Part shown: positions 4,559 through 63,998 of the stretch, one piece after another | Layout: the number at the start of each line of letters is the position of its first letter | Position numbering within the stretch: the stretch's first letter is position 1 | Assembly (NCBI GenBank): GCA_038222225.1 | Contig: JBBRHV010000001.1 | Span: 13,864-77,863 of the forward strand | Direction of reading: 5' to 3' | Origin: Candidatus Omnitrophota bacterium | GTDB lineage: Bacteria > Omnitrophota > Gorgyraeia > Zapsychrales > JANLHA01 | Length of the DNA: 64,000 nt | Made by a program: the position numbers and the translations under genes | The notes under the pieces: generated by a model | Told to the model about the DNA's origin: nothing | The model's database searches: none | What the model saw: the letters and a program-made list of their open reading frames with translations, nothing else

Positions 4559-4576
4559 TTTTATAAGAGGGGAACT

Positions 4577-5458
4577 ATGCTTTTTATTGCCGCGTTATTA
4601 TGGTTTTTGTGCGCCTTCAGTTTTGTCTTGGGGCTTTTTCCTCTGGAGATGGAGACCCGCCCGACATTGCAGGCCTTCGGCTATGAGTTGCGCCCGACGA
4701 AAAAAAGAAAAAATCCGTTAGCGATCATCCGCTTGATCGCGATGTTTAACCGGCCGTTTGTTGGGTCAGGCAAGCTGCGGGAAAAAATTCTTAAAGAACT
4801 TTCCATGGCCCATGTGAATTTAACGCCGGAGGAATTCTGGCTGTTTAAAGAAATTTCAATTGTGGCGATGCTGGTTTTTACATATCCTCTGATTGAGCCG
4901 GATTACCTGATCATGTGGCTGCTGTTATGTGTGTTTTTCGGATATATGCTGCCCGAGTATTGGCTGCGCGGAAAGATTAAAAAGGTGAAAGGCGTTATTT
5001 TGAAAGAACTTCCTGATGCCGTTGACCTTTTGGGATTGTGCGTGAACGCCGGGTTAGATTTTATGCTGGCTTTGAAGTGGGTTGTTGAAAAATCGCCGCC
5101 ATCGATCATGGTCAGTGAGATGAATATTCTGCTTCAGGAAATTAATGTTGGAAAAACCCGACGGGACGCCTTAAAAGCGCTGTCTTCCAAGTATGATTTG
5201 CCGGATCTCTCAACATTTACGCGTACTTTGATCCAGGCCGATAAAATGGGAACGTCGGTTTCCGAGGCGCTGATCATTCTTTCGGAAGACATGCGTCTGG
5301 CCCGTTACCGTCGGGGTGAACAAATGGCAATGAAGGCGCCGATGAAACTATTGGTTCCGTTGTTGTTTTTTATTTTTCCGGTGGTCGGTATTTTGGTCGG
5401 GGGTCCGATCTTCATTCAATTTATGACCGAGAATCCCATGAGTCGTATTGGTGGGTAA
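4577..5458 (+). CDS. tadC: TadC-like Flp pilus assembly inner-membrane platform protein (T2SS-F / GspF-like domain).
   Basis: It is 293 aa with an N-terminal TM. The segment LPDAVDLLGLCVNAGLDFMLALKWVV...LIQADKMGTSVSEALIILSEDMRLARYRRGEQMAMKAPMKLLVPLLFFIFPVV is T2SSF-like. An AGAGGGG sequence lies 5 nt upstream of the ATG. Only 18 bp separate it from tadB. Confidence 0.75.
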   Translation: MLFIAALLWFLCAFSFVLGLFPLEMETRPTLQAFGYELRPTKKRKNPLAIIRLIAMFNRPFVGSGKLREKILKELSMAHVNLTPEEFWLFKEISIVAMLVFTYPLIEPDYLIMWLLLCVFFGYMLPEYWLRGKIKKVKGVILKELPDAVDLLGLCVNAGLDFMLALKWVVEKSPPSIMVSEMNILLQEINVGKTRRDALKALSSKYDLPDLSTFTRTLIQADKMGTSVSEALIILSEDMRLARYRRGEQMAMKAPMKLLVPLLFFIFPVVGILVGGPIFIQFMTENPMSRIGG

Positions 5459-6064: not shown

Positions 6065-6125
6065 TAGAAATCCTTCCGGCTAAAAAACTAACGTACAATC
6101 TGGACATAAAAAAGTACCCACTTTT

Positions 6126-24100: not shown

Positions 24101-27100
24101 CAGCCAAGGGCTTGAAAATTTAAAAACAGACCTAAGGACGGCCGCGAAGGCAGGCTCATTAGGGGATGTCAGGGTAGACGAGATCGATGATGTGGTGAAG
24201 AATTACCGTGAGATCGGAGCTCTCAACGCTTATGGATTGACCTTACCGGGTGTCACAGCGCTTACGGCTGCCGTGGGTATGGCCCAACTTGGAAGAACTT
24301 CGCAAGAACTCTTGGCCGGGTTGAAGAGGGAAGTCGTTCAGGATGTTGCTACCAGAATTGCTTTAAATAATGCCGTGATCGAGCAGCGTGCCGCGGAACA
24401 GGAACGGTATTTTAACGAACATGAACAAGCTCCGACAACACCAGCGTCGGGAGCAGGGGCAGCACCAGGGGCAGCACCAGGGGCAGCACCAGGAGCAGCG
24501 GCAGTGCCAGGAACACCGGCTGCGAATCCAGCAACTCTTTCAGGATCCAATGCAGCAATTCTTCCAGGATCCAGTAAAAAGTTTAATAAAGAGAAGTATT
24601 TGAAGGAACAGGGCTTTATCGATGCGGACAAGCAAGCGGAGATCGTCAGAAGTTATGAACGGTCCTTTGAAGCGCTTGAAGCTAGAACGAATTTGACTGC
24701 TTTGGATATCGCCCAGGCAGCACAAAGTCTTGTGGGTTCTTCGCAGGCAGCGCGTCAGGCATTTAGGCTTGCGATGGATCGTGGCGGATTGCAAGGCGCC
24801 TTACAAGGAGTTACGTATGGTGAGGTGGCAGCATTTTTGCAGGATAGACGATTTGCCGGGACAGAATTCGCGCAATTGGATCAAGACTCCCTCGGGAAGT
24901 TTTTTGGCGACGAAAATCTTTTTGTGGAAGCGGTCCCTGGGCAGCGCGCAGACCGATTGAATCAGGCCGGACAACAGAGGCTGTATGAGGCGATCCTTGG
25001 TTTAGATCAGGGATCTTCACCGGCGCCATCTATGCCGGCTCCCGCAGCAGGCGCCGTTGCTGCACCGGCGGCTGTGACTCCGGAAATGGCTGGCGCACAA
25101 TTACTGCATAGAACGCCTGAGCAAAACGCGCGTATCCAGAAAATCCGTGAGCGGTTAGCAGGCGGAGAGCTCACAGTATACGGAAGCGTTGTCTATGATA
25201 AGGGAACAGGAGGAGCTCTTAGTCCGGAATTTTCCGATGCGGATGGAGCGTATGCTGTATTGATCGATCGTTATGACGGAAAAATTGCTATTGTTGAACA
25301 AAAGGGCGGAACATATCAGATCGATGCTCAGACCAAGATTCTTTTACAGCAGTCACATTATAATCCGAACCAAGAAATTGCCCCTTCTGTTTCAGCGGCC
25401 AAGATGAACACAATATTAGGCCAGAATAAAGTTCATCATCAGCTGGCTGAAGCAAACGCGCTTATCGGCAATATCATACACACACGGATCAGCAAAAAGA
25501 AAACCATTAATCAGGCTGCCGTAGACAAAAACACTGAAGAACTGACAGCCTTATTGGACCAGTTGTTGGAAGCGCAATATGGAGTAGGTCCGGCGAGCGT
25601 TGCGCTTGCCCCATCCGGTCCAGCCCGAACACATGTATTATCAAAATCAAAAGATCCGGCTAAAGATATTGGTGTTAAGTCACAGCCTTTTTCACTGCAA
25701 CTGTCAGGCGTGAGGGTGGGGGTAGCGGGCCAAACAGGGGCGGTCTTCCTTGATCCTTTGATCGAATTGGTCGGCAAGCCCGCTGAGCACGAAAGAGGGT
25801 CGAACACTATTTTTGCCGGGGCCCGCACATTGGGTACAGCTCTCACAGATTTTAAGGATCCGCAGGTTGCCGGCGTTCTCGAGCATGAGGGTGATCATCA
25901 GGACCAGAGATTTGCTTTGAAGCAAGGACAGGCAAGGGGTACTTCGACGGCGTCTCTTGCTAAAGGGATATCTTTGTCGACTAGTTTCTCTTCGAAAATC
26001 ACAAGTCTTGTCGCCCGGATGGGCGGCCGGAGTATTGGAATAGGAGCCCAGCGCTTCGGAAGGCAGATAGGAAGCGCGTATACACATATTTATAATGACC
26101 CGAACGGAAAGCTCCACGCGCAAGGCAGGACAGAAAGCGGTGAAGGCGAGGCTTGGGAAAGGGAAATATCCGGGAAAGTAGATTTGCTGAGGAAAGCAGT
26201 AGACAGTAAAGATTGGCGCAGCGCTCAACGTATGGTGAGAAGCTTGTTGGATGCGAACAGTGTACCGCTGATCCGCAATTTGATGTTGAAACATTCCTAT
26301 CAATGGCGAGAATTGTTGGCAAAAACGCAAGCGGGCACTCTTGGCACAGATTTCGGAATTGTCCAGGTTCCTGGTATGAAGACCGCGGTGGTGGTCTGGC
26401 AGTTTACAGATGGGGAGATAGATGCAGAAACAGGGCGCATAAAAATACAACATCATGCCTTGCCGATCGATGCTTCGGTTATGCAGTTAGCAACACCGGA
26501 AGAAAAGAAGGTAGCGGTCGAGGCGGCCTTGAAACAGATGATTAATGAAAGGGAGCAGCTGGCCGCACGATATAATATGGTGCTGACTGTTTTGGATAAG
26601 GCCCAAAGACAAGGCGTTGAGCTGAGTATGAATCCGGAAACCGGTTTTGCGCTGGGCGCTTTAGCTATGGCGCTCGAAGAGAGTTCAACGACATTGGGGA
26701 ATGCCTTTACGAGCGCCCAAGCAGCCAGCTCAAGCAATAATTTTAACAGTATCAGACAGGAAGAAGGATTGTCTCCTGAGACGCAAGCCCTGCGGGTTGC
26801 GACTGAGATCATGTCCAATTCCCGCCGGATCAATGGCGCCAGTGCCGAATTTACACAACTGGTAGGGCGGGTGGGAGCGCCAGATGAGGTCTTAGAATAT
26901 AATCAGAAGACTGGACGCGGTATTGTTACGAGTAGGTCAGGGGGATTTGAGCTTGTTTCCATCGGCTCAAGCCGTTCATCGGGCCAGATCCGCGATGAAC
27001 GCAGTGCGGTTGATTTTACTGCGCCCTCTGCGACTAAGTATCAGCCTTATGATGAGAGCCGTGCCCGTATTTTTGCTGTTAAGGCTATTCTTTTGGGTGG

Positions 27101-30100
27101 AAATTCCGCGGTTTCGGCAACTCAAGCTGCTCCGGCGCAAGGCGCTCGGGGAGTTCTTATCGGGATTTCAAAAGCTGCCGGAACGGTAATGTCAGCTCTT
27201 TCTTCGGTTGTTTCTTTTTCCTCCACACCGGAGGAATTTGCAAAATATACATTAGGCCGCCAGGCTAATGAAGGAAGCACAACAGCACAAAAGATTTTAG
27301 CAGGTGAGATGCCGCTTCAGTTAAGCGGCACAGCAGCGATTGTTCCGGCCGGATCAGATGCGGCAGTAACCCAGCCGACACCGCGAGCCGCGATCAATGG
27401 AGCATTTAGAGATAGCCAGCCGGTGAATGCGGAACTTTTGGCCGCGTATAATTCAACGGCAGACCGCCCGATCGCGATTCCGCAAAATTATGTTAAGCAG
27501 GGCGAATTTTTAGTTCCTGTAGTAGCAGTTGCAACAACAGGTGCAGCAACATCATTAACCGGCACAGCGGCTGTGTCTACGCCTGTAGCGACATTGCCGG
27601 AAGCAGCGTTACCGCAAGATTTAGGCACGTCGACATCAGTGCAGACATTGCCGGTGCTACCAGTTCTTCAGACGGTTACAACAGGGATGCCGTTAGCCGT
27701 CAATCTGGATGCAATGAAGGTGGAAGACCAGCTGGCGCGCGCACGAATTGAGAATATCACCCAGAGCGGTGATTTAGGGGCAGCTAAGGCCGTGGGCACA
27801 GCTGCATCAAATAAAGAACAACCAACAAGCGTGTCTCAGTCAGCACAAAAACCTTCCGGGCATGGCGGGGTTGAGACACGCACCGTAAATTCAGCGGTGA
27901 TCCTGGATGCGGCGATGAGCGCGAGACCTGATTCCAATCAGGTGCTCGCCACACGCCGTGCAGACGGGACCGTCGTTTCAGTTATAAATCCGAACACGAA
28001 AGCCGTTGAGATCGCCGGAGTGAGCTTGCAGCCTGGCCAGGAAGCGTTGATGGCGCAGGAGCCGGCGACACAAGAGTATAAGGCGATCAAGGTAGAGAGA
28101 AAAGAAGCAGCCGGCCAAACACAGACAGTTGTGAGTGAAGCGGTGACGATCGGAAATATTCAATTAGCCAAGGGAGATCTGGTTGAGTATGCGGATAACG
28201 GAGCGATCAGGATCTTAGATCAGGTAACGCCGCAGATCGTTAAGGCCGAGGTAGCCGGAAGCCTGCGCGGCGATATTCAGCCGAATGCGACCAAGCAGGT
28301 TGCTGTTGAGAAAATCTTTGGTGATTTGAAAGTTATGAAAGCCGATGTGGCTGTTGCGACCGGAGAGACCAAGACGTTGTATGTAGAGCCGACGGCAACA
28401 GTGCAGAAAGCCTTCCCGGGACGTAAGGCAGATTCAAATGGCATGATCCAGCTAAAGGCTGAAGAAGTGGAGGCCGCGTTTAGTTTGGCAAAGACCGGCA
28501 TCATTAATATAGAGAAGACACGCAGAGATCTGAATCAGGCGGTTGTTGTTCAGGCAGAAAATCGCGGAGAGATTAAGGTTTTAGCACAGGCCCCGAAGGT
28601 TTATCAGCAGGCAGTTGAAGCAGCGCGTGAGGATTTACGAAGCCAGTTGCGGATCGCGCAGGCCAAGGCACAGGACAGCAAGGGCGAAGAAGAGAAAGCA
28701 CAATTTGAAACACAGGTCAGTCAGATTGCCAGTGAATTAACTTTGTTACGCGATGAGAATGTTGTTGTCTTAGATGCCCCGCAAGCACAAGTTCAAGCAT
28801 ACCGCAGTGAAGCCAAAGCCACACAATTAAAACCCGAACAAGCCGTTGCTGTTGATCTTGCGTTAAATGAACGCGTGGAAGGCGGTTTTGTGGATAACAC
28901 AGGCCGTGTTGTTGTGTTTGCTGACACAGCAGAGCGGAATTTTGATTTTGCGGTCAAAACAGAGCAGGTGAATTTGATCCAGCAGAGTGTCGCGAAACGG
29001 GTGGCGGAGACAGTTAAACATGAAGTGGCAGCGGCAGCAAATCAATATGAAACAGATGCGGCCAATATTGAAGGAACGCGGACACGGATCGCGACATTAG
29101 CTCTTCCGACGCAGGCGAGCCTGACAGGGCGCGAAGGCGATAAGACCGAGGTGGCAGACGCTTCCAGCATCACCGCTCTGTTAAGCGGACAGACACATGA
29201 GATCAGTACGCCGGTTCAAGCAACAGCGCAAGCGATTGGGACTGCCGGCGCTCCGGCGGTTCAGAACAGAACTGTGAAAGCCATGAAAGATTTAGGCGAA
29301 GCAGAAGCCGGAAAAGTTTTTGCGCAGATCAAAACGCTTAATGAAAATCTGACGGCTGAGGGCGTCTCTGGCTTTGAAAATATGGCCCAGAATATTGAGG
29401 GCTGGGATTGGATGGATAGGGTTAAAAACCAAGGGTTTAATTTTGTTTCCAGAGATCAGCAAGGGAATCTGCGCGGCTACATGGTGGCTGCGCCGGTTCA
29501 GGATATCAGTGCGGAAAAAGGGATTGAAGATTATGTTTGGATTAACTTGTTTGCTGTGGATAAAGATGTCCGCGGACAAGGCGATGCCAATCAATTGATG
29601 ATGGAAGTGGCCCAGCGTGCCGCAAACCAAGGCATTCCTGAGATCCGCTTGGGTGTCTTCAATGATAATCCTGCCGCACGAAAAGTATATGAACAGCGTT
29701 ATGGTTTTTCGCCTTTGAGGGAAAATGAAAATAATGGATGGGATCTTAAGGTTCAGACCAAAGATTTGTTGGCCACAACACAAAGCCTAGTTGCTCAGCA
29801 GAGCGTTGCAAACCAGACAGCGGTATCGGTTCAAGTGGCAACAATGGCAGCAGCGCCAGCCACGAATGCGGCAACACTGAGCGCACCGGAAATGTCACGG
29901 CTGCCGTTTCAGACGGTTGATGCGTATCGTGTTGATCGCGGCATTGTTGTTGTGGATGGAACGCCCTGGGAGAGTGTTTTAGGGGGCGCTTCAACGATTC
30001 AAACGAATGCCGCGGTTCTTCAAGCAGCAAAAGTTGCAGAGGAGTTCGAAGGAAAAGCGATTGAGTTTGCCGATTCTCAGGGGCTTGTCAGGAGGTTTGT

Positions 30101-33100
30101 TGTTCGGGCGCAAACACAGAGCATGACCAGTCCGGATCAAAAGGGTCTTGTGAATATTCGTTTGGAAGATGAATCCGGACGAAACACAGAAAGCCCGGTC
30201 ATGACTGTCTATGTGGAGCCCAACGGAAGGCTTCAGGTCAGCTCTGATTTGATCAATGCCAATGAAGACACGCTTGATGATTTAGGAACGCGCTTAGCAG
30301 TTGTTGGTGAAGGCGCAGGCCGCCAGGTTCAGTTTATGACTTCAACCGGCGAAGTGAAGACTGTTGTTGAAAAGGCAGATCAGGAGTTGGCGGACAACGA
30401 AATCAATGTTTCGGGTGTTATTGGAGAAACAAAAATAGGGCGTCTTAATAATGCCATGGGATTTGACCGGTTTGAGATTGTGAGCAGCGACGGCACACAA
30501 AGCGGAATTGGCGCGTTTGAGAGGATTGTTTCAGAAAATAATCAGAGCGCAGTTACGGCAAGCTCAAAGGCCACATTTAAATTAAGAGCGGAAAAAACGG
30601 ATTCGTCAGATTCCCGTATGGTTCCGCAAGTGGTTGCGCCGGCAGAAACACAACAAACAGATAATGCCAGGATCAATTACCGTTATCCGAAATCAGTGTC
30701 CGCAGGATTCGGTCGCGTTCAAACTTTTGCAGCGAAAGAAAAAATTTCTTTGGCAGCTCATCAAGCCAATAGCGGTGAGGGCGATTTTAAACAAGTGCAT
30801 GTTATTGCATCTGATGCGGCAGATCCGAGAATGCAGGCAGAAATGATGGCGCGTGCAGCACAGGCGGCAACGACCAATTCCGCTGTTTTGGTGTTTGACG
30901 CTACAGATACCGAATCTCCGTTCAAGGCTGTCGAGATTCAAAACGGAGAAGTTCGTTACCGCAATGTTCAGCCAAACGAGATTGAGAGCGGGACAGTGGT
31001 CGTCGCTAATCCTCGTTTGAACGTCGCTGCAGCATTCAAGCCTTCTCTTGAGGCAACGCGCCGCTTGGTGAAGCAGGGGAATGTCATTATTGATCCGGAT
31101 GTCTTTTCAGTTGAATATGATGCGGCTGGTGGAACGCAGCTAACAACAGGATCTGTGGTTGAAATTTCCGCGCTCGAATCATCCAAAATGCATGCGGCAA
31201 GCATTCCTCCGGCACAGGCCCGTTTGATGAAGCGCGTCCGTATTGTTTTAAATGTTGAGAATGGGACCATCTTTTCACGCGAGGCTTTTGTTGATTCTCG
31301 CATTAGCCAATATCAACCGCAGGAACAGCAGAATTTTAAAGATGTGATCTTTGTTTTAGCGCAGGAAAATGCGTTCGATTATGTTCAGATTGATGATTCC
31401 AGCGCCAGCAGCATGCGGACTGAAATCATCCACACTTCTGACGGGTTCAATGTCCTTGTGATCGGCGCTGGTTATGCAAGAACGGACATGAATTTGATTC
31501 AGGATATTGGTAAGGAAGCTGATAAAGATCAAGGGTTTGTTGCACGGGCCGTAAGCGGCGCGTCCGATTGGCTGACACGCATCAAACCGTCCACGGTCCG
31601 GAGTGAAAGAACCGCGGCGGATATTATGGCACGCCGTCAAAATTTAACGATGAATCAAGCTCCGCTCATATCAAAGAAGGAAGCAGCGGCTATGGTTGGG
31701 TCAGGGCAAATTCCCAGTTGGAAACAGGCCGTTGCGAATTTAGACGCGGAAAGGCCAACGACAGGGACCGGCCGAATCACGAATATTGCATCAGATCTCA
31801 AGGCGGCGACGCAAGCTAATTCTGCGGCTTTGAAGTCTTCTCAGAATGATATGCCGGCGGCAATCTCCACGAATGCGGCATCATTAAACACAGGCGCTGA
31901 TCAAGCGGAACGTTCAAGCAATCCAGAAATAGGCACCAATGCCGCTATAACGAGGGATCAGACGCCTCAATTCAGTTATACTCCGGGCGCGGCATTAGAA
32001 GATGAGACGCTCAGCGGGACACTGGATTCCGGCATATTGAGGTTTGATTCAGGCAAAGCCATATTGCCTGTTAATGGCGGTGACCAGAATGACATTTTCG
32101 AGGTCGCTCCAAATGAGATTGTCCGGGTAGCGCATGTTGCCAATCGCGAATATTCTGAAGCTCAGATCAAAACATTAGAGCGGGCACAGGAAGCAGGCAT
32201 TGTCCCCGCTATTACTGAGATCGGACGGGTTTCCGGACGGCAAGGCACATGGCATCAATATGCCCGTTTGGCTAAAGTCTCTGGGGATAATCTCATGATC
32301 TCGGTTTTAGATGAAAACCGCCAGCTGACAGATGAGGAAGCGGATAAGGTGATCCGTTTTGTAGATAAAGGCATCGATGCAGGATATATTTTTGAATTTA
32401 AACCGTCTTCTCTTATGACAGCGGCCAATGGCGAATATGTGACGGTTGATGTTGATCCGATTGAGGTTTCTGCGCAGACACCGCAACGAGAAGCAGCCGA
32501 AATATATTTAGATCTTTACCGCCAGAAGTCATCCTGGAGAGTGATGGATCCGCAGGGTCGCATCGGTGCGCATTTAGAAAAACGCGTACAGCTGCAGCAG
32601 GCCAATGCGGGTAGCGGCGATTCTTCGAGCGGCGTTAATTCAGCTGTGTTAAGTGATCAAAAGCGGCCGTCTATTGAGGCTATCCCAACGCGCGGTCAGA
32701 ATGTCCTGGATTTGATCAAGAGAGCAGCAGATCAAGTGAATTGGCTGAAGGTTAGATTAACGGCTTCTGACAGATCAGACCGGGCTGTTGAGCGTGCTCA
32801 GGATAGAAGAGAGCAAGGCGTTAAACGGGCAGCGACAAGGACAGCTGTTCCATCCACAAATGCAGCAGGAAAGACAATACAGCGTCCGTCTAAAGTTGGT
32901 TCAGTTGTTGTCGGGATCGCCACCAGCACAAAGAATCCGATGGATGCAGAGGCATGGCGACCATTTATGGAAGGGAAGATTAAAGCCGGAGATCAGGCCG
33001 CGATTGCTGAATATGTCGGGTTGTTTTTATCTGGGGATGCCAATTGGGTAGAGTTCCGTCGACTTGTTGAAGAAAGTGAAGCCGCGATAGCAAGAGGAGA

Positions 33101-36100
33101 TACAAACGGAGCTGTTCTGTCTCAGGAGACTGTAGATATTTGGGCTCCGGTTTTAGCGCAAGTCCGTGTTAAAGAAGCGGAGTTGGCTCAGCAGGGGGGA
33201 ACCAGCGCGACCGTTTTGGGCAGCTCAGCATTGGCCCGTAGTGTCCAGTCATTGTTAACGGTCGGCATGCTCGTTCAGGGTATCTCCGGGTTTAATGTTG
33301 GCGCCGCAGAGGCCATTTCTGATTCAGTGAAAGTAGAAATGGCCGCAGATGCCCGTTTAAGAGACGAACTCCAGCGCGCGATGCAGGAGTTTGACAAAAT
33401 TGAACAAAAATATTCGCTTAAACGTGAATTTAAGCCAGGCCTACATATTATTGGTGATTACGATGATGCAAGGCCAACGCTAATCTTGATTCATGGTGGA
33501 TTCTCGAAACCGGATGCGTTCGAGAGATTTGCACCATACTTTAGAGAACAATTCAACATTGTTGTCTTTTCGTATAGCTCCGCGGATCGATTGGAACGTA
33601 CTGGAGAGATCTTCCGGGCAGATTATGAGAGAATGTTTAAAGGAAGTCGTTCGAAGAAGATTATTGTTACGCATTCATTCGGTAGTACGGCCTTTATGAG
33701 AACAATGCTCGATGCAAGCCCTGAATTTAAAGCCCAATTAAAGAAGACCGCTAAGGTGTTTATGTTGTCTCCGGCGTTCTTCGGATCTGCCCGTGTAGGA
33801 ATTGGCGGCAACTGGGTTGTTCAAGGCCAATTATGGCTGGGTTCGCTTGGTGGAGCGTTCGACTTTATGGAAGCGACGCGCAGACAGGCGCGATATAACG
33901 ATCCAAAGGGCAAGACTACGGCAGAATTATATAAACGATATCAAGAATTTAAGGATCTGTTTGATCAAGAAGTGGAAGTGATCGCTTTAACGAACGATTC
34001 TCATGCTCCGAAACGTCAGGAAAGTATTTTAGGTCAACGGTATCAGGAGATTATTGTTGAGGGCGGAACACTGTTACCGGCTGAAACAGATGTTGGACAT
34101 TCTGAGATCCTGCGTCGTAGAGATGTAGCAGAGACGATTATTAAGAAGGCTTTAGAAGATGATGCGAAGGGCGCCACCAATCCAGCTGTTTTGTCTGCTG
34201 ATACAAGGGCTCAGGAAGAAGGAGAACGCGGAATTGAAGTAGAGTTGCCTAATCTTCCGCAGCCGGATATAAATCCAACAATTCTGCCTGACACATCAAG
34301 TCAGCCGTTGCCGATTCAGCTTAATCCGGGCATGTTGCCGATCTATATATTAGGGAAAGCAGACACGTCAAGGCCGGTTCCGTTTGGACGGGATAGTGAA
34401 AGAGACTCTAAACAAACGCCTGTCATTCCTGCTACCGGAAGCCAGTTGCCGCTTCCTCTTATACCGGCAGATGGCGGAACTCCGGGTTCTGGTCCTTCGG
34501 GTACAGGATCAAGGGCCAATTCAACAGCATTTGTGGTCTTAGCGCGCAATATTTTGCCTTCTTCTAAGGACGAAGTGCGTATTGCACCCAATAATTTGAG
34601 TCAAACTCAAGGAGATTTTGAGATAACAGATATTCGAATGGCCAGTCGCAAGAATTGGACTGGTACCGGACTTAGTCCAACGGCAAGGGCATCTGCCGAC
34701 CACTCCACAGTGGTTCAGGCAGACGGAGTAGTAGAGTGGATCAGACTTACAGTTGGGACTGTTGTAGAAGTAGTGGTATTTGACAATGTGGCTAACTTGT
34801 TGAGCAACACTAGCTTAAGTGAAGTGGCGCTTGACGAGGGAGAAGCAGGTGTGTGGACTGTGCGCCTCGGCGCGAACCGCACGCGAGCAGTAGAAGGATA
34901 CGTTGTAGACGTAGAAGTAGTGGTAGCTGTAGAAGCAGAAGCACAAAGTGTGACTGACGGATTGAACTCGGCTATCTTAGGTGGCGTAACGACAGATAAG
35001 GGAGAAACAGAAGCACAGTCTGTACGCGCGAGCGTAGAAAATGTGCAACGTACTGGAATAGTTGTAAGCAACAGAAGCAGCAGTAGTATTAGAGGGAATC
35101 GTTCTTTGAGGGGTCATGATATCGCAGGTCGCGGCATTCTGGTTGTTGCTATTCAGTCTCGGGCTCTGCTTGAGGCCGGAGAAGGCATCTTGAATGTAGT
35201 AAGCGGCTTAGGTACCAAGATCCTGGTTAGTGCAGCTAAGATGGGCAGCAATGTTGTAACAGGTGTCAAACAGGGTTCTAGGAGTGTGGGTTCTGGTAAC
35301 AGAGCAGAGCATTCTAGTCCAGTTGTGATACCTAGAGTTCTTGGAGTACGTACTGGTAGCTCACGCAGTGTCAGTCGTAGATCCGGGAATCGAAATGCCG
35401 AACGTCATAACAGCAAGGTCTTTGGCCGCGCTGTCAGCCGTTTGGTGCGAAGCAGAAGTATTAGAAACATTATTGGAACAGCTGTAAGAAGTAGACGTAT
35501 TCGCTCTGTAGTAAGCCATAGTCGTGAGTCAGGCAGTTCTGCTGAGGGTGAATCCGCTGGATCTGATGCGGATGCTGATGCAGATGGTTCGCGAAGTGTG
35601 GATCAAATTAGTGGAAGTCATGTTGTAGAAGGAAATCGTTCTGTCATCAGTTTAGTAAGTGCGAGCCAAGAAGGAGAAGTGGCTCAAAATGAAGGTTATA
35701 GAGTGCGAAGCCTTCAGAGTATAACCGCCGAATCGAATGCTGCAACACTGGCAAGAGATCAAGCGGCTTCTAGCATTGATGAGAATAGTGTACGAAGAGA
35801 AGTTGTAGAAGGAAATCGCTCTGTCATCAGTTCAGTAAGTGCGGGCCAAGAAGGAGAATTGGCCCAAAATGCAGTTTATGAGGTGCGAAAACTGCGAAAT
35901 GTAACCGCCGAATCGAATGCTGTAACACTGGCAAAAGATCAAGCGGCTTCTGCTGTTACTGGTGATCACAATGTAGACGTCAATCGCTTGCAAGGTGTAG
36001 AAGGTGTAGGCGCTGTATATAGTGAAGTAGGAAGCTCACAGCTCGCAAGAGCTGATTCTGATAATCTTGGGTTGCGCAAAGAAGGAAGAGCGACTCAGGC

Positions 36101-54100: not shown

Positions 54101-57100
54101 GATCACCATGGGTATCCGCCGTTGGTATAAACAGCATTTCACGGATGATGTTCCGAGATTCTTTGAGAAGATCGATAGTTTTGGGAAGGAGGACACCATT
54201 AAAGATGTCCTATTTTCTGGGAAAACCAAACCTGAGCCAGCTGGTTTTGAAATGAACAAAGAGTTCAAGAAAAACGGAGTACAGCATGTAACAATTAATG
54301 GCCAGGATCTTACAGTCGGAAAAGAGGTTTTAACGGTAATGGATGTAAACGGAGTTTCTGAACCGACCGGCTATAAGGTTAAGGAAATATTCAAGAATAA
54401 GGTGGTTCTCGAAAAAGGAAAAGAAGATTTTATTGTACACAGAATGAATGCTTATTATGGAGCCGCCAGAATAGTAATAGTGGCAGTTGTAATAGGAGCG
54501 GTGTGGCTTATTCCGGGCAATTACCTTTATATAGGAATTATTCTCTTCAGCATTTTCTACCTGGGGTTAGGCTTTGTTTCAGATGCCAAGAATCTTTGGG
54601 CTAAGATCTTAAAACTCAAAAATATTCAGAAGATTCTGAACCATCCAAAAGTTAAAAAGATCCGGGATGATCAAGCAAAGAAAGCCAAAGAGCGTAAGGA
54701 TGAGCTAGCAAACGGCAAAGAGCGCTCAACAGCTGAAAAGGTTCGGGATTTTCTGACATTACCGAAAGGTAAAACTTTACGGGATATTATTAATCTTTAT
54801 ATGACAGGCATCATTGTCATGTTGATGTTGACCGCGTTGGGGGTTGTTACATCGGTTATTGTTGCCGCTCCATATACGGCCGGGTTGTTTATTCGTGCTC
54901 AGATCAAGTTCTTACGTCTGCCGTCTTTGGCGAAGTTTGTCGGCTGGTCTTCTCTTGTTATTTGGCTAAGTAAGCTGGCTGTTCCGGCAATCTTATTATA
55001 CACAGGCGGGTTTGCGGCATTTTTGGCCGTGGTTGGGTTTGAGGTTATCATCGGATCCTTCGCATCAGGGCTGTTCACCGGAGAGGCCGAGGATGCACAA
55101 TTGGCCTTAGATATTCGTTCGCTCCATGAGGAAAAATCTCAGAGTGTAAAGGGTACAAACAGCGCGGTCTTGGCTAATCAGAAGAATGACGGCAAGAAAG
55201 ACCTCGCCCGCACTGAAGACGGCGAGGCATTGAATGACGGACAAGAAGCTTTCTTAAGAACATTGATCGATCAATATCAGGATCAGATCGCCGCGGGTGA
55301 GCCGGTCGATGCTGCGGTCATTGAGAAAATTGCCGCTCTCCTCAGAGAGCAAGGGTATGTTCATGTTGCCAATGCTCTTCTGAGTAAAACCGTTGTCCGC
55401 GGGCCTCCGTCATTGTTTACTGATTTTGAAGAAAGCATCCATAGAGTCCTTCTGGGTACTATCACAGGGACTCACATCATCATCAATCCGATGATCCTTT
55501 CTCATCCGGTGGAATTAGCCCGCACGATCATTCATGAAGCGGGTGCTTCTGCCGGGTTGTCCCATAACGAAAATAAAGAACTCGAAAAATTAGCGCATCC
55601 GCTTTTGGTGGCGATCGACGGCCTCTCAGCAACAGGGAAGTCCGCCGTTAGCGGTTATTTAAGCAAAGACCTCAAATTTGTCAATATCTCCATCGGGTTG
55701 ATCTACCGTTTCTTCGCCGCATTTATCAAACAATCCAATTTTGCGGTGCTCAGCGATCTCGAATTTGAGCAGCTCCGCGAGATGGCTGAAAAGATCAGCT
55801 ATGTGAAGAATGAAAACGGCGAGTGGAATTTTGTGGTTAACGGTCAGGTGATCAACAGCAATGATCCGGCGTACTTTAATCCGGAAATTGAGAAAGCACT
55901 CAGCGAGCATCTCTCCAAAAAACTCCATCCGTTAGTCCTTCCGGTGGCCAGAAGAGTTATCCGTCAGGTTTTGGCCAGCGGTGAGAACGTTGTTGTTGAG
56001 GGTAGGATTGCCTGTGATTATATCGCTCCATTTGCTGATGTGAAATTGAATATTGTTGCAGAATATTCTGTACGCGCGCAGAGACGGATGGAGCAGCGCA
56101 TCGCGCAGCATGGCATAGAGAAAGCCTATATGGATGCCATAGGCACCAAGAACGCGGCAGAATACCAGCAACGGGTGAGAATGGTCGCCCATGAAATTTA
56201 TGAAAAAAGTGGGCATAAGCCCGGGAATGACCTGGCCAATTGGGCGGAGGCGGAAAAGAGGGTCAGAGCTGAAATGGCTTCTAAGATCGAAGAGGGAGCA
56301 AGGACAGTGGAGGCGGAAAAGAGGGTCAAAGCTGAATTGGCTGCCAAGATTGAAGAAGGATTGCGGAGACGCGATAGAAAAGATCAGGAACATTTACCGA
56401 AAGCGCCAGTTCAGCCCGGTAATGTTGTTGAGATCGACACAACGCATGCCCATGGTTTGGATGAGACCATTAGCAAGGTTCAGAAAGTTATTTCTCAGGC
56501 CTATCTCAGCGGACGAACAGGCCTCAGCCCGCAAGTCGCAGAGGTGACGCAGCAATTAGCATCTTTGAAGGCAGGCGAAGCTATTCCAGAAAGCTTGAAA
56601 CAGGCCATTTTGAAGGTCTTGCCGGTGATCGGTGAATTGAGCGAAGCCAAGATCGTTCACACGTTCCGCAATCTTGAATATCTGCACAGATTAGCAGCGC
56701 AGGATTTTGATTATTTCTACGATCACTTAAGCGAGCAAGAACGCGCCACGGTTGAACGGGCAGAATATGTGGCAGCGTTACAGAGCATCTATAAAGCGTA
56801 TGCAGCGTTAAGCGCACAGGAAAAAGAAGCGTTATGGCTGACTGTCGCGCTTCATGACATCGGATATATCCGTGTTAAGGACCATACCCACATGAGAGTC
56901 GGGGCTGAGATGGCTCGCCCGATTTTGGAAAACATCGGATTGAACCATGAGCTGATCGACCTTGTGGTCTTTACAATCAGCCAGCATGGTTCTATCGGAA
57001 ATTTGGCCCTGGGTGAAACAACTCCGAAGACAATGTTAAAGGCTTTAAGCGCCGTCAGCCCGGCTCTTCGGGCTGGACGTGCCCGGTTTGTCCGCCTCAT

Positions 57101-60100
57101 GAACAGCATGGATCTTTGCGGGTGGCATGTTGAAGAAAGCCGCTTGACGCTTTATTGGCAGAAGATTTTTGAACAATTCAGCTCAATCGCTCAATTAGAA
57201 GCCGCGGCACAGGCTGGAAATTATCATACACATCGTTTAGAGAAGTTCGCCCGCACAGAATTCGAAAAACAAGCCACACCGGAAGATCTTGAGAGATTAA
57301 ATCAGACTATCGAAAAATTAGTTTCTGAAGATGAGCGAGAACAATTCTATGCATGGCTCAATTCAGATATGTACATGGATTATTATGAGCCTATTTTCTG
57401 GGGCTTAAATCAAGGTGATCCGTCATATGTATCGCTGGTTAAGTTATTAAGGACATATTTCCACATTACAACTTCATTGAACGGGAAAATGCCAGAGCTT
57501 CGTCTCTGTGAGATCACGACAACCTTCCGGGAAATTTCTTCAAGTATGAAACGGCAGTATATTATTAAAGAACTGAAGGCGATTTTGGCGCTGATGCCCG
57601 AGCAGTTCACATTGAGTGATGCTACGGTCCATTTGTCAGGCAATAACTGGGTCCGGTTCTTTGGAATTCCGCTGATTCTGAGGGGCCAGTGTCTTGTGAT
57701 CGACTTCCAGTATCTTCACTTCCGTGTTTTATTGTTCAAGCTGCGCGAAAGAGTTGGTCTCAAGCGCGGGTTCTCCCGTAAAACCGGATGGCAGGTTGAA
57801 GAAGCGGCCATGGATTTCACAGGCCAGCAGCCGCTTGTTGAATCAACATCGGAAACAGCGATGGAACGCGCGCAAAAAGCGCATACGGTTATCAGCTGGA
57901 TCTACAGCAGCCATGAAGCCTGCAAGGCATTTGTGCAGTATCTTCGCGGATATGCTGTTGGGCACACATACCGCAATCGATTGATGCCGTTGTATTTTAC
58001 TGTTTATAATTTCTTGGCAGGCCGGGCATTGAACGACCGGAGGGTCTTGTCTGCGGTCGAAGCAGATTTGTTAAAAGGCAATGTCACAGTTCATCATCAC
58101 GCATGGTTCGGAAGCGATGATGTGGCGGTATCCAGAAGTAAACATGGTTCAGCGGTCAATGTGGCTCAGCCAGCTAAACGCACATTCCGTATTTTGGTTA
58201 TGGGTTGTGCCGAGAAACCGAATGGGCGCGGATCGTTGGATGTCCTGAAAGAGATCCTGGACAGGCTGCCGAACCGGTCTGAATATAATATTGAGATCGT
58301 CGGAAATGACATCGCCTTCCAGGAAGAGTTTTACGCATTCAATGACAAAGGGACATGTTTAGGAAAGCGCCATACGCGTTTTGAATTTGATGAAAACGGC
58401 GTTTTTGTTGACCCGAATTCCGGGATCAGGTATGTCCGTATTGATATTACGAAACCGGAAAACAATCTGTTAAGTGGAGAATTTACGCCGGACAGCGGGT
58501 ATGATGTTGTCATCAACTCAAGAATTGCAGTTCAATATGGGGATTACCCGGATAAAGTCGAGAGCATCAGAAAGAATTCATTGAAGATTATTAATGAAGG
58601 CGGGCTGCTCCTGTTTGATACGCAGGATACTGACCATGCCGAAGTTTGGACAAAGGGAAACAACGGCGAAGCAATTCAAATTGGGTTTGCTGTTCCGTAT
58701 ATTGATATTTGGTCAGAGAGCAAGCGCGTTGAGAAGATCCTGGCTCGTATCTATGATGTCAATGGGGAAGATGCCGAACTTGTTCGCCAGGCATTCCACA
58801 TGAGGCTCGCATTTGCCGGGACACAAGGTTTAGTATTCGCGAGGAGCATCCTGGCTCAATTCTTGGGGATCTTTGGGGAGCAGCCGATTGCAATTGCGGC
58901 ATTCCTGTTGCGCGGGATCAGTATGGAAGCTGTTCAAGAGGTTTTTGGAGAGCAAACAGCGGCACAGATCGCGGCGATCAATGGGCTTATTCCTGCAGCC
59001 GATGAAGTCGTGATCTCAAGGCAAGCGTTGTGGGCATTTGAGAATTTCAACAGCCTTGAGCATGTGGAGATCCTTCCGGCCAACGTCGGCGTATTGGAGA
59101 ACCGTCAGATGTTGTATCGTGACGGGTTGTATCAGATTGAAGCTGCTACCGTCGGTGAAAAAATGGTTTTGATTATAAGCAAAGTTACGCCGGAGCAAAT
59201 CACATCCAAGATCATTGCGTTGCATGGTGAATATGCGGTTAAATATCAGAAAATGATCGGTGCGACAAACAGCGCGGTTCTGTCAAGCCAGAATGATGAG
59301 AGCAGCGCCAAGGTCATGGATGCCGATGCATGGGCACTTGATGCTAAGAACGTGTTTGAAGATGCTATCCGTAGTCTGATCGCTAAAGCCAGCCAGATCA
59401 TTCGCTGGTTAAAGATCAGACTCTATGTGACAGACCGTAGCGACAAAGTAGTGGCTAAAGAACAGCAAAGAGTTGAAGAGATGCCGTTAGCCGCAGCCGA
59501 ACCTCAGAGACCGAATCGCGTGGGTTCAGTGGTTCATACGTCAAGTTCGCATGAACAGAATCCGAACATGGCTGTTTGGAGACAGTATTTCGAAGGCAAA
59601 CTTGCGGCAGGTACAAACGCAGCTGTTTCCGCGCCTGACCGCATGGGCAAAACAACTGCCGATTATGAAGCTGAATTTGCTGCACGGTTCAATGATGCAA
59701 CCGACGCTGCATGGCAACAATTCCGCGCCGCGGTTGAAGCCAGCCCGGCTGATTATGCTCCTGTCTGGGTGAAGATTTTAGAGAAGGCAAAAGCAGGTAA
59801 GTCGGTGGAAACCGGTAAAGTGGTTGAGTTTGGAAAAACAGTTGAGTTGGTTGAGTTGGGCAAAGCAGTTGAGTGGGCTGGATCAAATGCAGCGGTTAAT
59901 TTGGTAAAGGCAGAAGATGTAATCGTTCGGTTTGACCGGTTCGCATTCTGGGTTTATGGCGCTACTCAATGGCTGAAGATCGCGCTTCATGTGACCGATT
60001 ACAGCGATCGGGCCGTGGCTAAAGAACAGGTTCGCGTGGAAGAGTCCCAGCTTCAACCGACCGGTCCGCCGGTTGGCTCCATGAATGTTAATCGTTTGAG

Positions 60101-63100
60101 TCGTAAAGGTTCAGTGGTTCATACATCAAGCTCTGATGTGCAGAACCCGAACCTGCCGGTTTGGAGAGGTTATTTCGAAGGCAAACTCTCCGCAAGCACT
60201 AACGCCGCCGTTCTTTCATCTGACCGCATGGGCAAAACCTCCGTTGATTATGAAGCTGAATTTGTTGCACGGTTCAATGATACAACCAACGCTGCATGGC
60301 AGGAATTCCGCGCCGCGGTTGAAGCTCATCCGGCAGAATATTCTTCTGTCTGGACAAAGATCGCAGAAAAAGCAAAAGCAGCCAAGGCGCAGGCAGAAAA
60401 GCCGGTTGAGTCGAAAGGAACAGTTCAAACGGTTGAGTTGGGAACGGCAAAAACTCTAAACGCTGCGGTATTATCCCGCCGTAATTTCATTCAGAGCATC
60501 GCGGTTGCAGGTGCTGCGATTTTAGCCGGCGGATGCGCTTCGCCTACGGAAAAAATGCTTCGCGGATGGTCCAATCTTTCCATTGAAGAGCAGCGCAAAC
60601 AGATCGAGGGTATGAAGGCGATCGCCAGTGAATTTAAGGCCAAGGATACCCGTGAATTTCTAACAGAACCAGCTTTGAGGTTCCTGGAGACTCAAGCCAA
60701 GATTTCACGTAAAGACGCACTGTCTATTCGCATTCTATTCACGTCTGATGAGATGTCATCGGTAATCGGGGTGTCGACTGACGCAGGAACGATGACGCGC
60801 GCGAAATTGGGAGAATTAAGGAATCGTTTCTTAAGACATGTTCCGTCAATGAGGGCTGAGTGGCAGGAAGCCTTTGATCTGATGGAACAAAATATTTTTG
60901 ACGGTCGGGATGTGGTGGTTGTTCTCAGGGAAAGTTTATTTGATACAGAGGCCTTGGATGACTTTAGAATTGCTCAGGTTGTTCACGAAGCTGTGCATTG
61001 GGCGCAATTCACGTTCCGCAGTAAAAAGATGGGCCTGTCCTTCGGGAGGGGTGCTGAAGAATATCTCGAGCTTGAAATTGAGAAGGAAGCCTACGCGCTG
61101 CAGATGCTGTATTTGGCAGGGCGCGGAAAAACCTGGGCAACAATAGCCGTATTTTTCGCCGGAGATGCTCCGAGCGGAAAGGCGGAGGTTGACGGGCCTT
61201 TGGCCGCGGAATTTGAACAGACCCGGTTTGGGCACGGATTGAAACAAATTTGGGATACGCGCGTTGCGCCGAAACTTTCGTCGGGTAAAGCGGTTGAGTC
61301 GGAACCGACCAATTCCGCGGTAAGCACATTTGTAGTACAAACCAAAAGTCCGGTGCTAGGTACACAGGGACGAAACCAAACCGTCAAAGACGGTCAGTTG
61401 TTCAATGTCACGCAGCGTTGGCTAGAGCCGCTTGTTGATGAAGGGGCGACAACAGGCGATTCGCTTGAAGCCAACGCTGCGGTGACGAACTATTTTGAGC
61501 GTTCTTCTGACAGCATGACCTTCTCAGGAAAAGGGCGAGTTGTTCCGGCAAGAACGCGACAGCTTCCGCAGACAATTGAAGAAGATATGCTGCCGGCCTT
61601 GCCGGCCTCAAGTTTACCGGAAAATACGCCGGTGCGCGAGCTTCCGGCAATCCCGAGCTTACCAATAAACATTCAGTTGATCGTGCCGGTGTTTGGCGGC
61701 GCTAACGGAAATGGAAATGGAAAAAGAAGAGGTGGTCCGTATTCGATGATCGCCTTTGCCAGGACATTGGGCGGTTCACGCGCGAATTTAAGAGCTCCGC
61801 GCAGCTTGAATGCTGATAATTTTGGAAAACGACATTTGGTCAATTCGGCTCTAAGAGCCTCAGGCCGTAATTTTGCTTCAACAGGTTTGAGTGACGTGGC
61901 GCATGGCTCAAATGGCGACGATGCTAATAGCGCTGTTACAAATAGCGACGAAGATTCGGATGCAGACGCTGCCACGGGTGCGTCCAACGTCGAAGGTGTG
62001 CGCGCGGTAAGAGAGCGGCGGTTCAATGTGGCTTGGTTGAGTTCACGTTCATTTGTCGCTGAACATAAGGATGGAACATGGGCTATTGTTTTTGAGGACG
62101 ATCTATTTTATGGCGTGGTCGGCAACACGATGCTCGACACTGTTAAATTCCTCCAGAGTGCCGGATTCAAGAACGCGATGGTGGTGGATGCGGGCAGCCG
62201 CGGAGCGTTTACCGCCAAAGGAAAAGAAGGGGCTCTCTTTAGTGAATCGCGCGTTCCGGGCAAGGGGCCGTACACATATTTGAATGTCCTGTCGAACCAT
62301 GATTTCCCGAAGACTCCCGCACCGTCACAGAAACCGGTCGGGAAAAATCATGCCGTACTCCATGGCGGTCAAAACGAGAAGCGAAAATCAGCTGCTGCAT
62401 TCAGCAAGGGCGCAGCAGTCATATCCGGGACCAACGCTGCTTCACACAATCATCACCGGAATAAAGGGTCAAAGGATAAAAAGGGGATTCAGGCTAGGGC
62501 AGTTTCAGATAAGAGATCATCAGCGAATAATCCTCGAAACATGGGTCGCCGCAACTTTATCCGAAATGCACTGTTGGCGGGCGGGGCCGCGGGACTTGGG
62601 TTTGGCGCCTGGTTCTCCTTGCGAGGACGCGCGTTTGATCCTCTGTTCTGGAAGGCCTTTGGTTTGAAGAAGGATCTCGCGCTGTTAATAAAGTATTTGG
62701 AACAGGTCGGCGAATGGTTGCGTTATAACGGTTATGCGCACATGGATGTTGTTGAAGCGTATCTTCAGGCCGTCCGTGAAAAAGCCGAAGTCATTGATCT
62801 CAATATCGGAAGTCAGGTTTTTGGAAAGGCCGAGGATCCTGTTAGCGGAGACATTCATATTGAATTGAATATCGGGTCATTGTTCCGTATGGCCGAAGCG
62901 GTTCAGACCATTTCTAAAATCGCCCAGCGTGAGCAGGGGGCTGGCGCCGCAAACGATACGACCATGTTTGTGCAGGTGATTGTTGAATCGTTGGTCCGTG
63001 AAGCCTGGGGTTATGACCTGATGGTGCGCAACCGTCCCGGACGCAAGCAGTTCGTGAACGTCTTTAATGATCTCCGGCTAAAGATTCAGGAAGCGGACCG

Positions 63101-63998: not shown

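Follow-up and report, generated by a model that had tools for sequence, protein, structure and literature searches.

The 64,000-nucleotide (nt) stretch of Candidatus Omnitrophota DNA analysed here (contig JBBRHV010000001.1; the window) contains a single long open reading frame (ORF), and we found that a short peptide motif with the consensus [G/A/S]-[T/S]-N-[S/A/P]-A-V-L-[S/Q/A] recurs in the giant protein that it encodes. The motif is a real, non-random signal at the level of the peptide. Judging from sequence comparison, this short linear motif is specific to the lineage and marks the flexible linkers that join one cassette to the next within two soluble blocks of the protein (residues 6150-10160 and 16360-19220). 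Our preferred explanation, to which we give a probability of about 45%, is that an endoprotease would recognise the motif between cassettes and divide the giant precursor into module-sized products.

The giant ORF lies on the forward strand (+) in frame 3 and is free of stop codons from nt 6084 to 63998 (19,305 codons). The ATG at nt 6126 is the probable start, because MNDRMDI aligns with the MDDRLDI start of the homologue P0001. The ORF runs off the 3′ end of the window and is longer than 19,290 residues from this start. Residues are numbered from nt 6084, with residue i at nt 6084+3(i-1). The named homologues and the single orthologous contig belong to Candidatus Omnitrophota.

The abundance of the motif was compared with shuffles of the giant ORF. 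NxAVL was observed 13 times against 0.54 expected, and TNxAVL 8 times against 0.03. The expectations were unchanged when the sequence was shuffled locally, within 50 or 200 residues. In a permuted control, each of 23 other orders of N, A, V and L in the same template gave at most three matches. An unbiased count of k-mers, made without any prior pattern, showed that NSAV, TNAA, AVLS and NAAV are the four most repeated 4-mers of the protein, and each of them is a piece of the motif. Furthermore, N.AVL and TN.AV(L) were the only matches in a scan of the ORF for short words with unrelated flanks. An earlier note on this DNA had listed nine strict instances and 11 looser variants and had spoken of 20 or more sites. 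All of these copies are found where it placed them, in frame 3 of the single ORF, and the total is about right, since a position matrix gives 20 sites at a threshold giving 0.6 in shuffles; about 13 sites are strict and about 10 are independent of internal repeats. The regular expression that the note had proposed as a check has 10 matches against 0.06 in shuffles (maximum 1), and its frequency is far above that expected from composition.

Asn is the most constant residue in the position profile, and S, A, P, G or H comes next. Of the 26 window copies, 18 carry the Leu, after which stands S, A or Q. A broader form of the consensus is [G/A/S]-[T/S]-N-[S/A/P]-A-[V/T/I]-[L/V]-[S/Q/A]. When the flanks were aligned, as the earlier note had suggested, no position beyond the consensus was conserved, and most copies have no detectable flank similarity (flank identity 0.08-0.12). 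In addition, synonymous codons vary at every motif position among the copies. Thus, the signal is in the peptide and not in the DNA. A DNA-level signal, either a recombination site or an internal ribosome-binding site with a start codon, was excluded, given that synonymous codons are used freely (Val is mostly GTT) and no Shine-Dalgarno sequence precedes the ATG at nt 62541. We also rejected an N-glycosylation sequon, a sortase site, a prepilin-peptidase site and an intein junction, as the residues that define them are absent.

The copies of the motif are as follows.

Positions 6345 to 6365 (+), residues 88-94: YNPAVLW, the N-terminal copy, directly after the signal anchor (residues 64-82).
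Positions 24522 to 24566 (+), residues 6147-6161: ANPATLS and SNAAILP, a weak pair with position-matrix scores of 13.8 and 12.8.
Positions 29862 to 29882 (+), residues 7927-7933: TNAATLS, 45 residues after the GNAT domain; aligned with TNSAVLS of the orthologue, with non-homologous flanks.
Positions 30003 to 30023 (+), residues 7974-7980: TNAAVLQ, orthologous to TNAAVLA at orthologue residue 2563.
Positions 30873 to 30893 (+), residues 8264-8270: TNSAVLV, inside a conserved block; not kept in the orthologue, which has DQTPVYI.
Positions 31815 to 31955 (+), residues 8578-8624: a cluster of ANSAALK, TNAASLN and TNAAITR; the orthologue has the canonical NNAVLSS at the first position.
Positions 32634 to 32654 (+), residues 8851-8857: VNSAVLS, at the start of copy 0 of a 190-residue module.
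Positions 33102 to 33122 (+), residues 9007-9013: TNGAVLS, before the alpha/beta hydrolase; deleted in the orthologue.
Positions 33201 to 33221 (+): TSATVLG, degenerate; the orthologue has ANAAVLG here, about 35 residues downstream of the TNGAVLS position.
Positions 34176 to 34196 (+), residues 9365-9371: TNPAVLS, directly after the alpha/beta hydrolase; kept in the orthologue.
Positions 34269 to 34289 (+), residues 9396-9402: INPTILP, weakened; aligned with INPAVLP of the orthologue.
Positions 34962 to 34982 (+), residues 9627-9633: LNSAILG, aligned with SNSAVLG of the orthologue.
Positions 35733 to 35933 (+), residues 9884-9950: SNAATLA and SNAVTLA, one per unit of a 180-base-pair (bp) tandem repeat; the first is aligned with SNAAVVA of the orthologue.
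Positions 36555 to 36575 (+), residues 10158-10164: TNASTLA, identical in the orthologue, 48 residues before the membrane cluster at residues 10207-10767.
Positions 55155 to 55175 (+), residues 16358-16364: TNSAVLA, between the last membrane helix of the glucan-synthase block and Cmk.
Positions 59265 to 59285 (+), residues 17728-17734: TNSAVLS, at the start of module copy 1.
Positions 59613 to 59633 (+), residues 17844-17850: TNAAVSA, a mid-unit copy.
Positions 59883 to 59903 (+), residues 17934-17940: SNAAVNL, at the end of unit 1.
Positions 60198 to 60218 (+), residues 18039-18045: TNAAVLS, a mid-unit copy of unit 2.
Positions 60456 to 60476 (+), residues 18125-18131: LNAAVLS, which ends unit 2; the final S also serves as residue 1 of a twin-arginine translocation (Tat) signal.
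Positions 61308 to 61943 (+), residues 18409-18621: TNSAVST, ANAAVTN and ANSAVTN, loose, all under the position-matrix threshold of 9.
Positions 62343 to 62363 (+), residues 18754-18760: KNHAVLH, 65 residues before the second Tat-like signal.
Positions 63735 to 63755 (+), residues 19218-19224: TNPAVLQ, 25 residues before a Sec-signal-like or anchor segment (nt 63789-63878).

Except for the copy at residue 89, the supportable copies are confined to two soluble blocks, residues 6148-10159 and 16359-19219. No copy was found in residues 553-5670 or in the M23 block (residues 10768-14621), and the M23 block is free of the motif in the orthologue too. The earlier note had the motif absent from the first 7,000 residues; YNPAVLW (residue 89), ANPATLS (residue 6148) and SNAAILP (residue 6156) contradict this, but otherwise no earlier copy can be supported. 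Five homologues with 31-61% identity all keep Y, N, P, L and W of the N-terminal copy. In window 6273-6365, the N-terminal signal anchor leads into ISWA(M/F)(S/N)YNPxxLW, which is invariant in six sequences at the same level of identity. SWA resembles a signal-peptidase I site, and a cut after it would leave YNPAVLW at the new N-terminus.

Some of the copies belong to internal repeats. A module of about 190 residues, with the consensus WLK[IV]RL..DRSD..GSVV..NP..W..[FY][FM]EGK..., occurs three times (window 32640-33128, 59304-59903 and 59889-60488), and word-based search found no homologues of this region outside the lineage. Each module copy carries, or ends in, copies of the motif. About seven sites fall in this module, and about 10 strict copies belong to no repeat that could be detected within the protein. 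The earlier note had described a 564-bp repeat whose units each end with the motif. The unit-end copies SNAAVNL and LNAAVLS agree with this, but the repeat is in fact two copies spaced 585 nt apart and part of the three-copy module. The two ESNA[AV]TLA sites represent a single 180-bp tandem repeat. The AlphaFold2 (AF2) model of the module is poor, with a predicted local distance difference test score (pLDDT) of 56; in it, the end-of-unit copy lies in coil (pLDDT <50) and the mid-unit copy at a loop or short turn with low confidence.

An orthologue of part of the giant gene was recovered only by an alignment-based scan with a two-sequence alignment as query, on contig JAKLFA010000003.1 of the metagenome-assembled genome RA.bin146. 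The stretch recovered is 335955-358525 of this 368-kb contig, and the gene continues outside it. Its 7,523-residue open frame (nt 1-22571; L003p) is colinear with window residues 6879-12994 at 52-72% identity. A second stretch, L002, is 99.9% identical, comes from the same population and gave no further information. Word-based searches gave no match for the region of the 190-residue junction module and one partial match for the hydrolase region, and queries of 5,000 residues found no homologue in genome, metagenome or viral contigs. We found that the enrichment recurs in L003p, with 9 NxAVL against 0.25 expected and 6 TNxAV against 0.17. In paired positions below, G is the window residue and L the L003p residue. 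The global alignment places copies at G7975/L2563, G9366/L3804, G9397/L4139, G9628/L4362, G9885/L4616 and G10159/L4883, and about eight aligned positions keep the motif while the linker flanks diverge. Both TNAAVLQ at residue 7974 and its counterpart TNAAVLA follow one conserved element of 36 residues. At TNPAVLS (G9366), the seven residues are the same as in L003p although every one of the seven codons differs, and the sequence on either side has diverged. Among identical motif residues, 20 of 41 use different codons. The identity of the core is 0.69-0.74 against 0.44-0.49 in 30 flanking columns, which is modest evidence because the sites were chosen with some selection bias.

The copies also appear to turn over inside linkers. 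TNGAVLS is deleted in the orthologue, and ANAAVLG stands 35 residues further on, where the window has the degenerate TSATVLG (G9008-9041/L3481). The window NSAALKS (G8579) corresponds to NNAVLSS in L003p, and the window has two extra copies just downstream. This canonical copy at the position of ANSAALK points to turnover inside one linker, and where one of the two genomes has lost a copy, a further one stands close by in that linker. Purifying selection on the motif is indicated by the turnover of synonymous codons, the conservation of position in the orthologue and the cassette indels bracketed by copies. The earlier note had asked whether homologous giant proteins conserve the motif; the close relative RA.bin146 does so, but homologous giant proteins in general do not.

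The position of the motif between domains was described correctly in the earlier note: copies stand after GNAT, on both sides of the alpha/beta hydrolase, in the gap between the membrane bundle and Cmk, and before the Tat-like signals. The domains were mapped over the giant ORF with Pfam profiles, as listed here.

Positions 6630 to 7060 (+), about residues 185-325: Peptidase C39 domain (PF03412; Pfam match at residues 238-321), with catalytic Cys194 in HPLNCGV and His in EHFV.
Residues 7756-7882 (+): GNAT.
Residues 9133-9327 (+): alpha/beta hydrolase, a weak match.
Residues 11284-11365 (+): M23 peptidase.
Residues 15298-15840 (+): FKS-type glucan synthase.
Residues 16509-16679 (+): cytidylate kinase (Cmk).
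Within the giant ORF (+): DUF2934.
Residues 16911-16968 (+): HD.
Residues 18130-18149 (+): Tat signal, below threshold.

Over 20 residues on either side, the flanks of the motif tend more to disorder (TOP-IDP 0.141) than random positions in these soluble blocks do (0.094 +/- 0.013), and none of 2,000 controls reached the observed value. In addition, the median distance to an indel of at least five residues is 9 alignment columns, compared with 45 for random positions (P about 0.01). Several indels are bounded by the motif. An insert of 310 residues specific to the orthologue has TNPAVLS at one end and TNSAVLP at the other. A cassette of about 210 residues specific to the window starts right after TNAAVLQ and ends at a decayed TQQTDNA. 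Furthermore, the GNAT cassette of the window (residues 7708-7935) is replaced in L003p by about 1,600 unrelated residues with three motif copies of their own. On this comparison, the orthologous giant genes evolve by exchange of cassettes that the motif delimits. The membrane block at residues 10210-10943 also differs in length and is about 530 residues longer in the window than in RA.bin146.

Some copies precede export signals. Four sites precede the next signal or first membrane helix by 9, 25, 44 and 48 residues, and the earlier claim that the motif sits just upstream of embedded twin-arginine segments holds at both Tat-like signals, which are the following.

Positions 60474 to 60536 (+), residues 18131-18151: Tat and lipoprotein-type signal, SRRNFIQSIAVAGAAILAGG followed by C; its Pfam TAT_signal match (PF10518) scores 19.5 bits, under the cut-off of 22.7.
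Positions 62541 to 62618 (+), residues 18820-18845: second Tat-like signal, MGRRNFIRNALLAGGAAGLGFGAWFS, read from the sequence.

At the first of these, the motif copy LNAAVL runs directly into SRRNFIQSIAVAGAAILAGG and C, that is, into a canonical twin-arginine motif, a hydrophobic stretch and a lipobox-like Cys. The segment reads SRRNFIQ and then SIAVAGAAILAGG, which gives it a motif of the S/T-R-R-x-F-L-K type and a moderately hydrophobic stretch; its end is a lipobox-like AGG↓C. The second segment reads GRRNFIR and then NALLAGGAAGLGFGAW, again a Tat motif with a hydrophobic stretch. This signal (MGRRNFIRNALLAGGAAGLGFGAW) comes 39-65 residues after motif copies, the nearer being a looser GTNAASH at 39 residues. 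Both segments lie beyond residue 18,000 of the ORF and stay internal unless the precursor is cut. The in-frame ATG of MGRRNFI (nt 62541) has no Shine-Dalgarno sequence ahead of it, and the roughly 60 basic, low-complexity residues before MGRRNFI resemble a translated former intergenic spacer. Cutting at the motif would give the pieces downstream of it N-terminal ends like those of ordinary exported or membrane proteins. The position of copies ahead of export signals is suggestive of processing, though not decisive.

Based on these results, we propose that a site-specific endopeptidase would recognise the motif and cut the giant precursor into module-sized products, with N↓x or L↓S as candidate scissile bonds. 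Some products would have a Tat, lipoprotein or Sec signal of their own, or their first membrane helix, at the new N-terminus, and products exposed in this way would be targeted independently. Cassettes would be gained and lost as units of a module plus its site. Processing is favoured because the motif lies in linkers, occurs as one site per cassette, turns over within linkers, stands before export signals and shares its chain with a protease; moreover, it matches the release of MARTX effectors at Leu and the organisation of viral polyproteins. A further step, which we put forward only tentatively, is that the giant ORF may encode a true cellular polyprotein with a dedicated protease, about 20 sites of the TNxAVL type and several products that use newly exposed signals.

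The processing sites of MARTX toxins are Leu residues in unstructured segments between effectors (PMC2900308). The protein described here resembles MARTX and the large clostridial toxins (CPD, peptidase C80) in being a very large bacterial protein of many modules, with sites of Leu and a small residue in disordered linkers between enzyme cassettes, a Cys protease in the same chain, and cassette content that varies between relatives. However, its protease has a C39 fold, and C80 was not found in profile scans of the giant ORF. In addition, the consensus has Asn at its centre and extends over more residues, the sites number about 20 instead of 3-5, cleavage would still be a prediction here, and the giant protein is a polytopic membrane protein of a non-pathogen. 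The bacteriocin-processing C39 domains (PCAT1; LahT150, 6MPZ) share the fold and the catalytic Cys and His, but they act on double-glycine leaders, whereas the junction motif has neither a GG/GA/GS pair nor a leader-helix pattern. Furthermore, the C39 domain here follows a signal anchor and is not the cytoplasmic domain of an ABC transporter.

In viral polyproteins processed by 3C or 3C-like proteases, a short consensus likewise recurs at the junctions of a single giant ORF, and the products are released with new N-termini. The site of the coronavirus main protease is (T/S)-x-(A/V)-(V/T)-L-Q↓(S/A/G), and TNSAVLS and TNPAVLQ formally resemble TSAVLQ↓S. However, no chymotrypsin-like protease domain was detected in the giant ORF, the organism is cellular, and the obligatory P1 Gln is present in just two of 12 strict copies. 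Polymorphic toxins offer another likeness, since a short conserved peptide with an Asn marks the point at which variable cassettes are exchanged: VENN in CdiA and PxxxxDPxGL in Rhs, where the Asn has been proposed to assist cleavage. These toxins have one such boundary per protein, in contrast to about 20 here, and their motif lies in a folded pre-toxin domain and not in loose linkers. In addition, their conserved coding DNA serves recombination, whereas codon use is free in the motif described here.

West-Roberts et al. proposed the N-terminal C39 domain as the processing enzyme of Omnitrophota giant proteins (bioRxiv 10.1101/2023.11.21.568195). In the window, this domain matches PF03412 with 37.4 bits against a cut-off of 22 (E=2.7e-09), and HPLNCGV and EHFV are invariant in six sequences. 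Its AF2 model is confident (pLDDT 80-95), with 6MPZ (LahT150) and PCAT1 as top matches in the PDB at a template modelling (TM) score of about 0.7 normalised to the target; the model leaves YNPAVLW at pLDDT <30. The score above the Pfam cut-off, the invariant Cys and His and the confident model near LahT150 and PCAT1 mark the domain, as modelled, as a bona fide C39 peptidase, and on its sequence it is probably active. It is the only protease candidate seen for the motif; as such a candidate, it would need a non-canonical specificity and access to the motif blocks. The idea of polyprotein-like processing in the earlier note is upheld in part: there is a selected peptide signal in linkers, ahead of export signals, but its link to C39 is weak and Asn-mediated self-cleavage is unlikely.

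Several points weigh against processing at the motif. The motif does not contain the GG, GA or GS site that defines C39 substrates; in 26 window and 12 L003p copies, Gly stands at -2 in about half, without a conserved small-small pair, and no conserved leader pattern was found upstream of these copies. By the positive-inside rule, the charges around the first helix place C39 across the membrane from the N-terminus. C39 is probably on that opposite side, and the motif blocks, with GNAT, Cmk and HD, suggest the cytoplasm, where the cofactors of such enzymes are normally found; topology assigned by hand from hydrophobicity and charge is ambiguous after residue 16284. Profile scans of the motif-rich blocks and their surroundings revealed no further protease domain, even with the limit relaxed to E=1. 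C80, 3C-like, subtilisin and HINT domains were not detected in the motif blocks at this limit, and Peptidase_C80 had no match across the 19,305 residues at E up to 0.01 either. In addition, internal Tat signals can work without upstream cleavage, as is reported for the three-helix Rieske protein of Streptomyces (Keller et al. 2012). Some copies lie within conserved blocks or modules and not in free linkers (residue 8265 and the mid-unit copies). Finally, a single orthologue was found, and it covers the first motif block alone.

Selection, linker location and turnover fit a binding motif as well as a cleavage site. A short linear motif that is not cleaved, either a docking or assembly element or a structural linker such as helix N-caps that space the cassettes, is the main alternative, though a less probable one. 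The docking partner could be a chaperone, the Tad/T2SS-like (type II secretion system) machinery whose genes lie upstream or, within the giant protein, a domain that binds peptides. TadB/TadC-like genes do lie directly upstream, but profile scans of the giant ORF detected no peptide-binding domain. As a helix cap, Asn would be the N-cap, Pro, Ser or Ala would take N1, and Ala-Val-Leu would form the hydrophobic turn; [T/S]-N-[P/S/A] followed by A-V-L matches the preferences of helix starts, and AF2 draws a short helical turn on AAVL of a mid-unit copy with low confidence. However, capping does not require an invariant N..AVL core, and the residues after the motif are polar and disorder-prone, not helical. 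Moreover, a docking element or linker would leave unexplained why copies stand just before export signals and why exactly one copy goes with each cassette indel. We consider it improbable that the motif is an evolutionary relic, that is, the slowest-decaying part of homologous tails that were brought in by fusion or duplication of cassettes and now have little function. About seven copies do lie in the thrice-repeated 190-residue module and two in the tandem repeat, the orthologues differ by whole cassettes, and the 60 residues from KNHAVLH to MGRRNFI resemble a translated former intergenic spacer with a former start codon. A relic is disfavoured by the pattern of synonymous change, as at residue 9366, where every codon changed without any change of residue between diverged flanks. 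In addition, decayed sites are replaced by new copies in the same linker, and most copies share no flank similarity.

Self-cleavage at Asn, in which cyclisation to a succinimide breaks the N-x bond without a protease, is very improbable. It has precedents in the C-terminal Asn of inteins, in N↓PTH of FlhB/EscU, and in N↓A, N↓S and N↓P of some viral capsids, and the constant Asn with S, A, P, G or H after it is like these cases as generally known. However, these cases depend on a catalytic fold around the Asn, and the flanks of the present motif lack conservation, tend to disorder and lie near indels. T or S, not His, comes before Asn, and x-A-V-L, not Pro-Thr-His, comes after it; the conserved A-V-L would have no role in such chemistry. 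Furthermore, profile scans revealed neither a HINT/intein nor an FlhB-like domain (E up to 1 in the motif blocks). Chance, composition or a repeat artefact has a negligible probability and is excluded for the core set. It probably accounts for the loose sites at residues 7007 and 7269, which the orthologue does not keep, and for a strict match at residue 16552 inside the Cmk domain, and the loose form of the regular expression has a background of 3.4 matches. However, the global, local-shuffle and permuted-motif controls never approach the observed counts, the enrichment recurs independently in the orthologue, and the strict copies outside repeats number about 10.

The reach of the motif was assessed in 156 homologous proteins (301,280 residues), comprising 150 HMMER relatives of the glucan-synthase block and six others, many of them fragments of several thousand residues. 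NxAVL occurs nine times in this set, which is about chance level, and we rejected the view that the motif is a general feature of Omnitrophota giant proteins. Chance levels in the other giant fragments mean that it is not the general answer for this class, a further point against the processing explanation. On this comparison, the motif is lineage-specific, being found in this protein and its close relative only. A de novo scan of 28 fragments of at least 3,000 residues gave no comparable recurrent word, except for the weak SSSP[LIV] words in P0098 and P0030. In P0098 (5,601 residues), SSSP occurs eight times and SSSPL five times (0.007 expected), and in P0030 (6,521 residues) SSSP/SSPI recur; the flanks are unrelated in both. 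These words may be an analogous junction motif of another lineage. A search for the motif strings in the searchable literature returned unrelated matches only.

Two adjacent single-domain T2SSF genes of the TadB/TadC type (285 and 293 residues; window 3701-5458) lie directly before the giant gene. A secretion locus has been reported upstream of Omnitrophota giant genes, and this pair matches that report. The 1,083-residue ORF before the pair (nt 14-3265) has no Pfam match. Within the giant ORF, window 51975-53603 encodes a 1,3-beta-glucan synthase domain of the fungal FKS1 type (GT48; PF02364, E=1.7e-50) in a bacterial giant protein. A query of 1,200 residues spanning it matches 785 cluster representatives, many of which are proteins of several thousand residues. 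Cys is extremely depleted, with 16 in the 19,305 residues of the whole ORF (0.08%), and the places of two of the 16 are informative about function: Cys194 is the catalytic residue of C39, and Cys18151 belongs to the lipobox. Two in-frame tandem repeats are unrelated to the motif, one of 51 bp (window 38742-38881; 2.7 copies, with a recurring KTAAAPADAAK) and one of 228 bp (window 46592-47017; 1.9 copies). The cassette after the first Tat signal has a weak match to NAGPA phosphodiester glycosidase (window 61899-62219, residues 18606-18712; E=0.009, under the cut-off). The hydrolase cassette has no sequence relative in the PDB.

The Omnitrophota proteins of 10,000-150,000 residues may act as single chains or may be cut into pieces. 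Cleavage of these giant proteins has been suspected, and analysis has been blocked because the cleavage points were not known (bioRxiv 10.1101/2023.11.21.568195). Both papers on Omnitrophota giant proteins suspect cleavage and give no sites. The motif described here is a first concrete candidate for such cut points. Junction sites in multi-module precursors are already known as an idea. The reach of the finding is limited by its restriction to one lineage, and other giant proteins would need motifs of their own. In this lineage, the motif gives exact residues at which cleavage can be tested and makes the question directly testable; it also offers a rational way to split the giant protein into modules for structure prediction. 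If the processing explanation is true, these copies would form the first set of processing sites to be defined by sequence in the largest bacterial proteins known.

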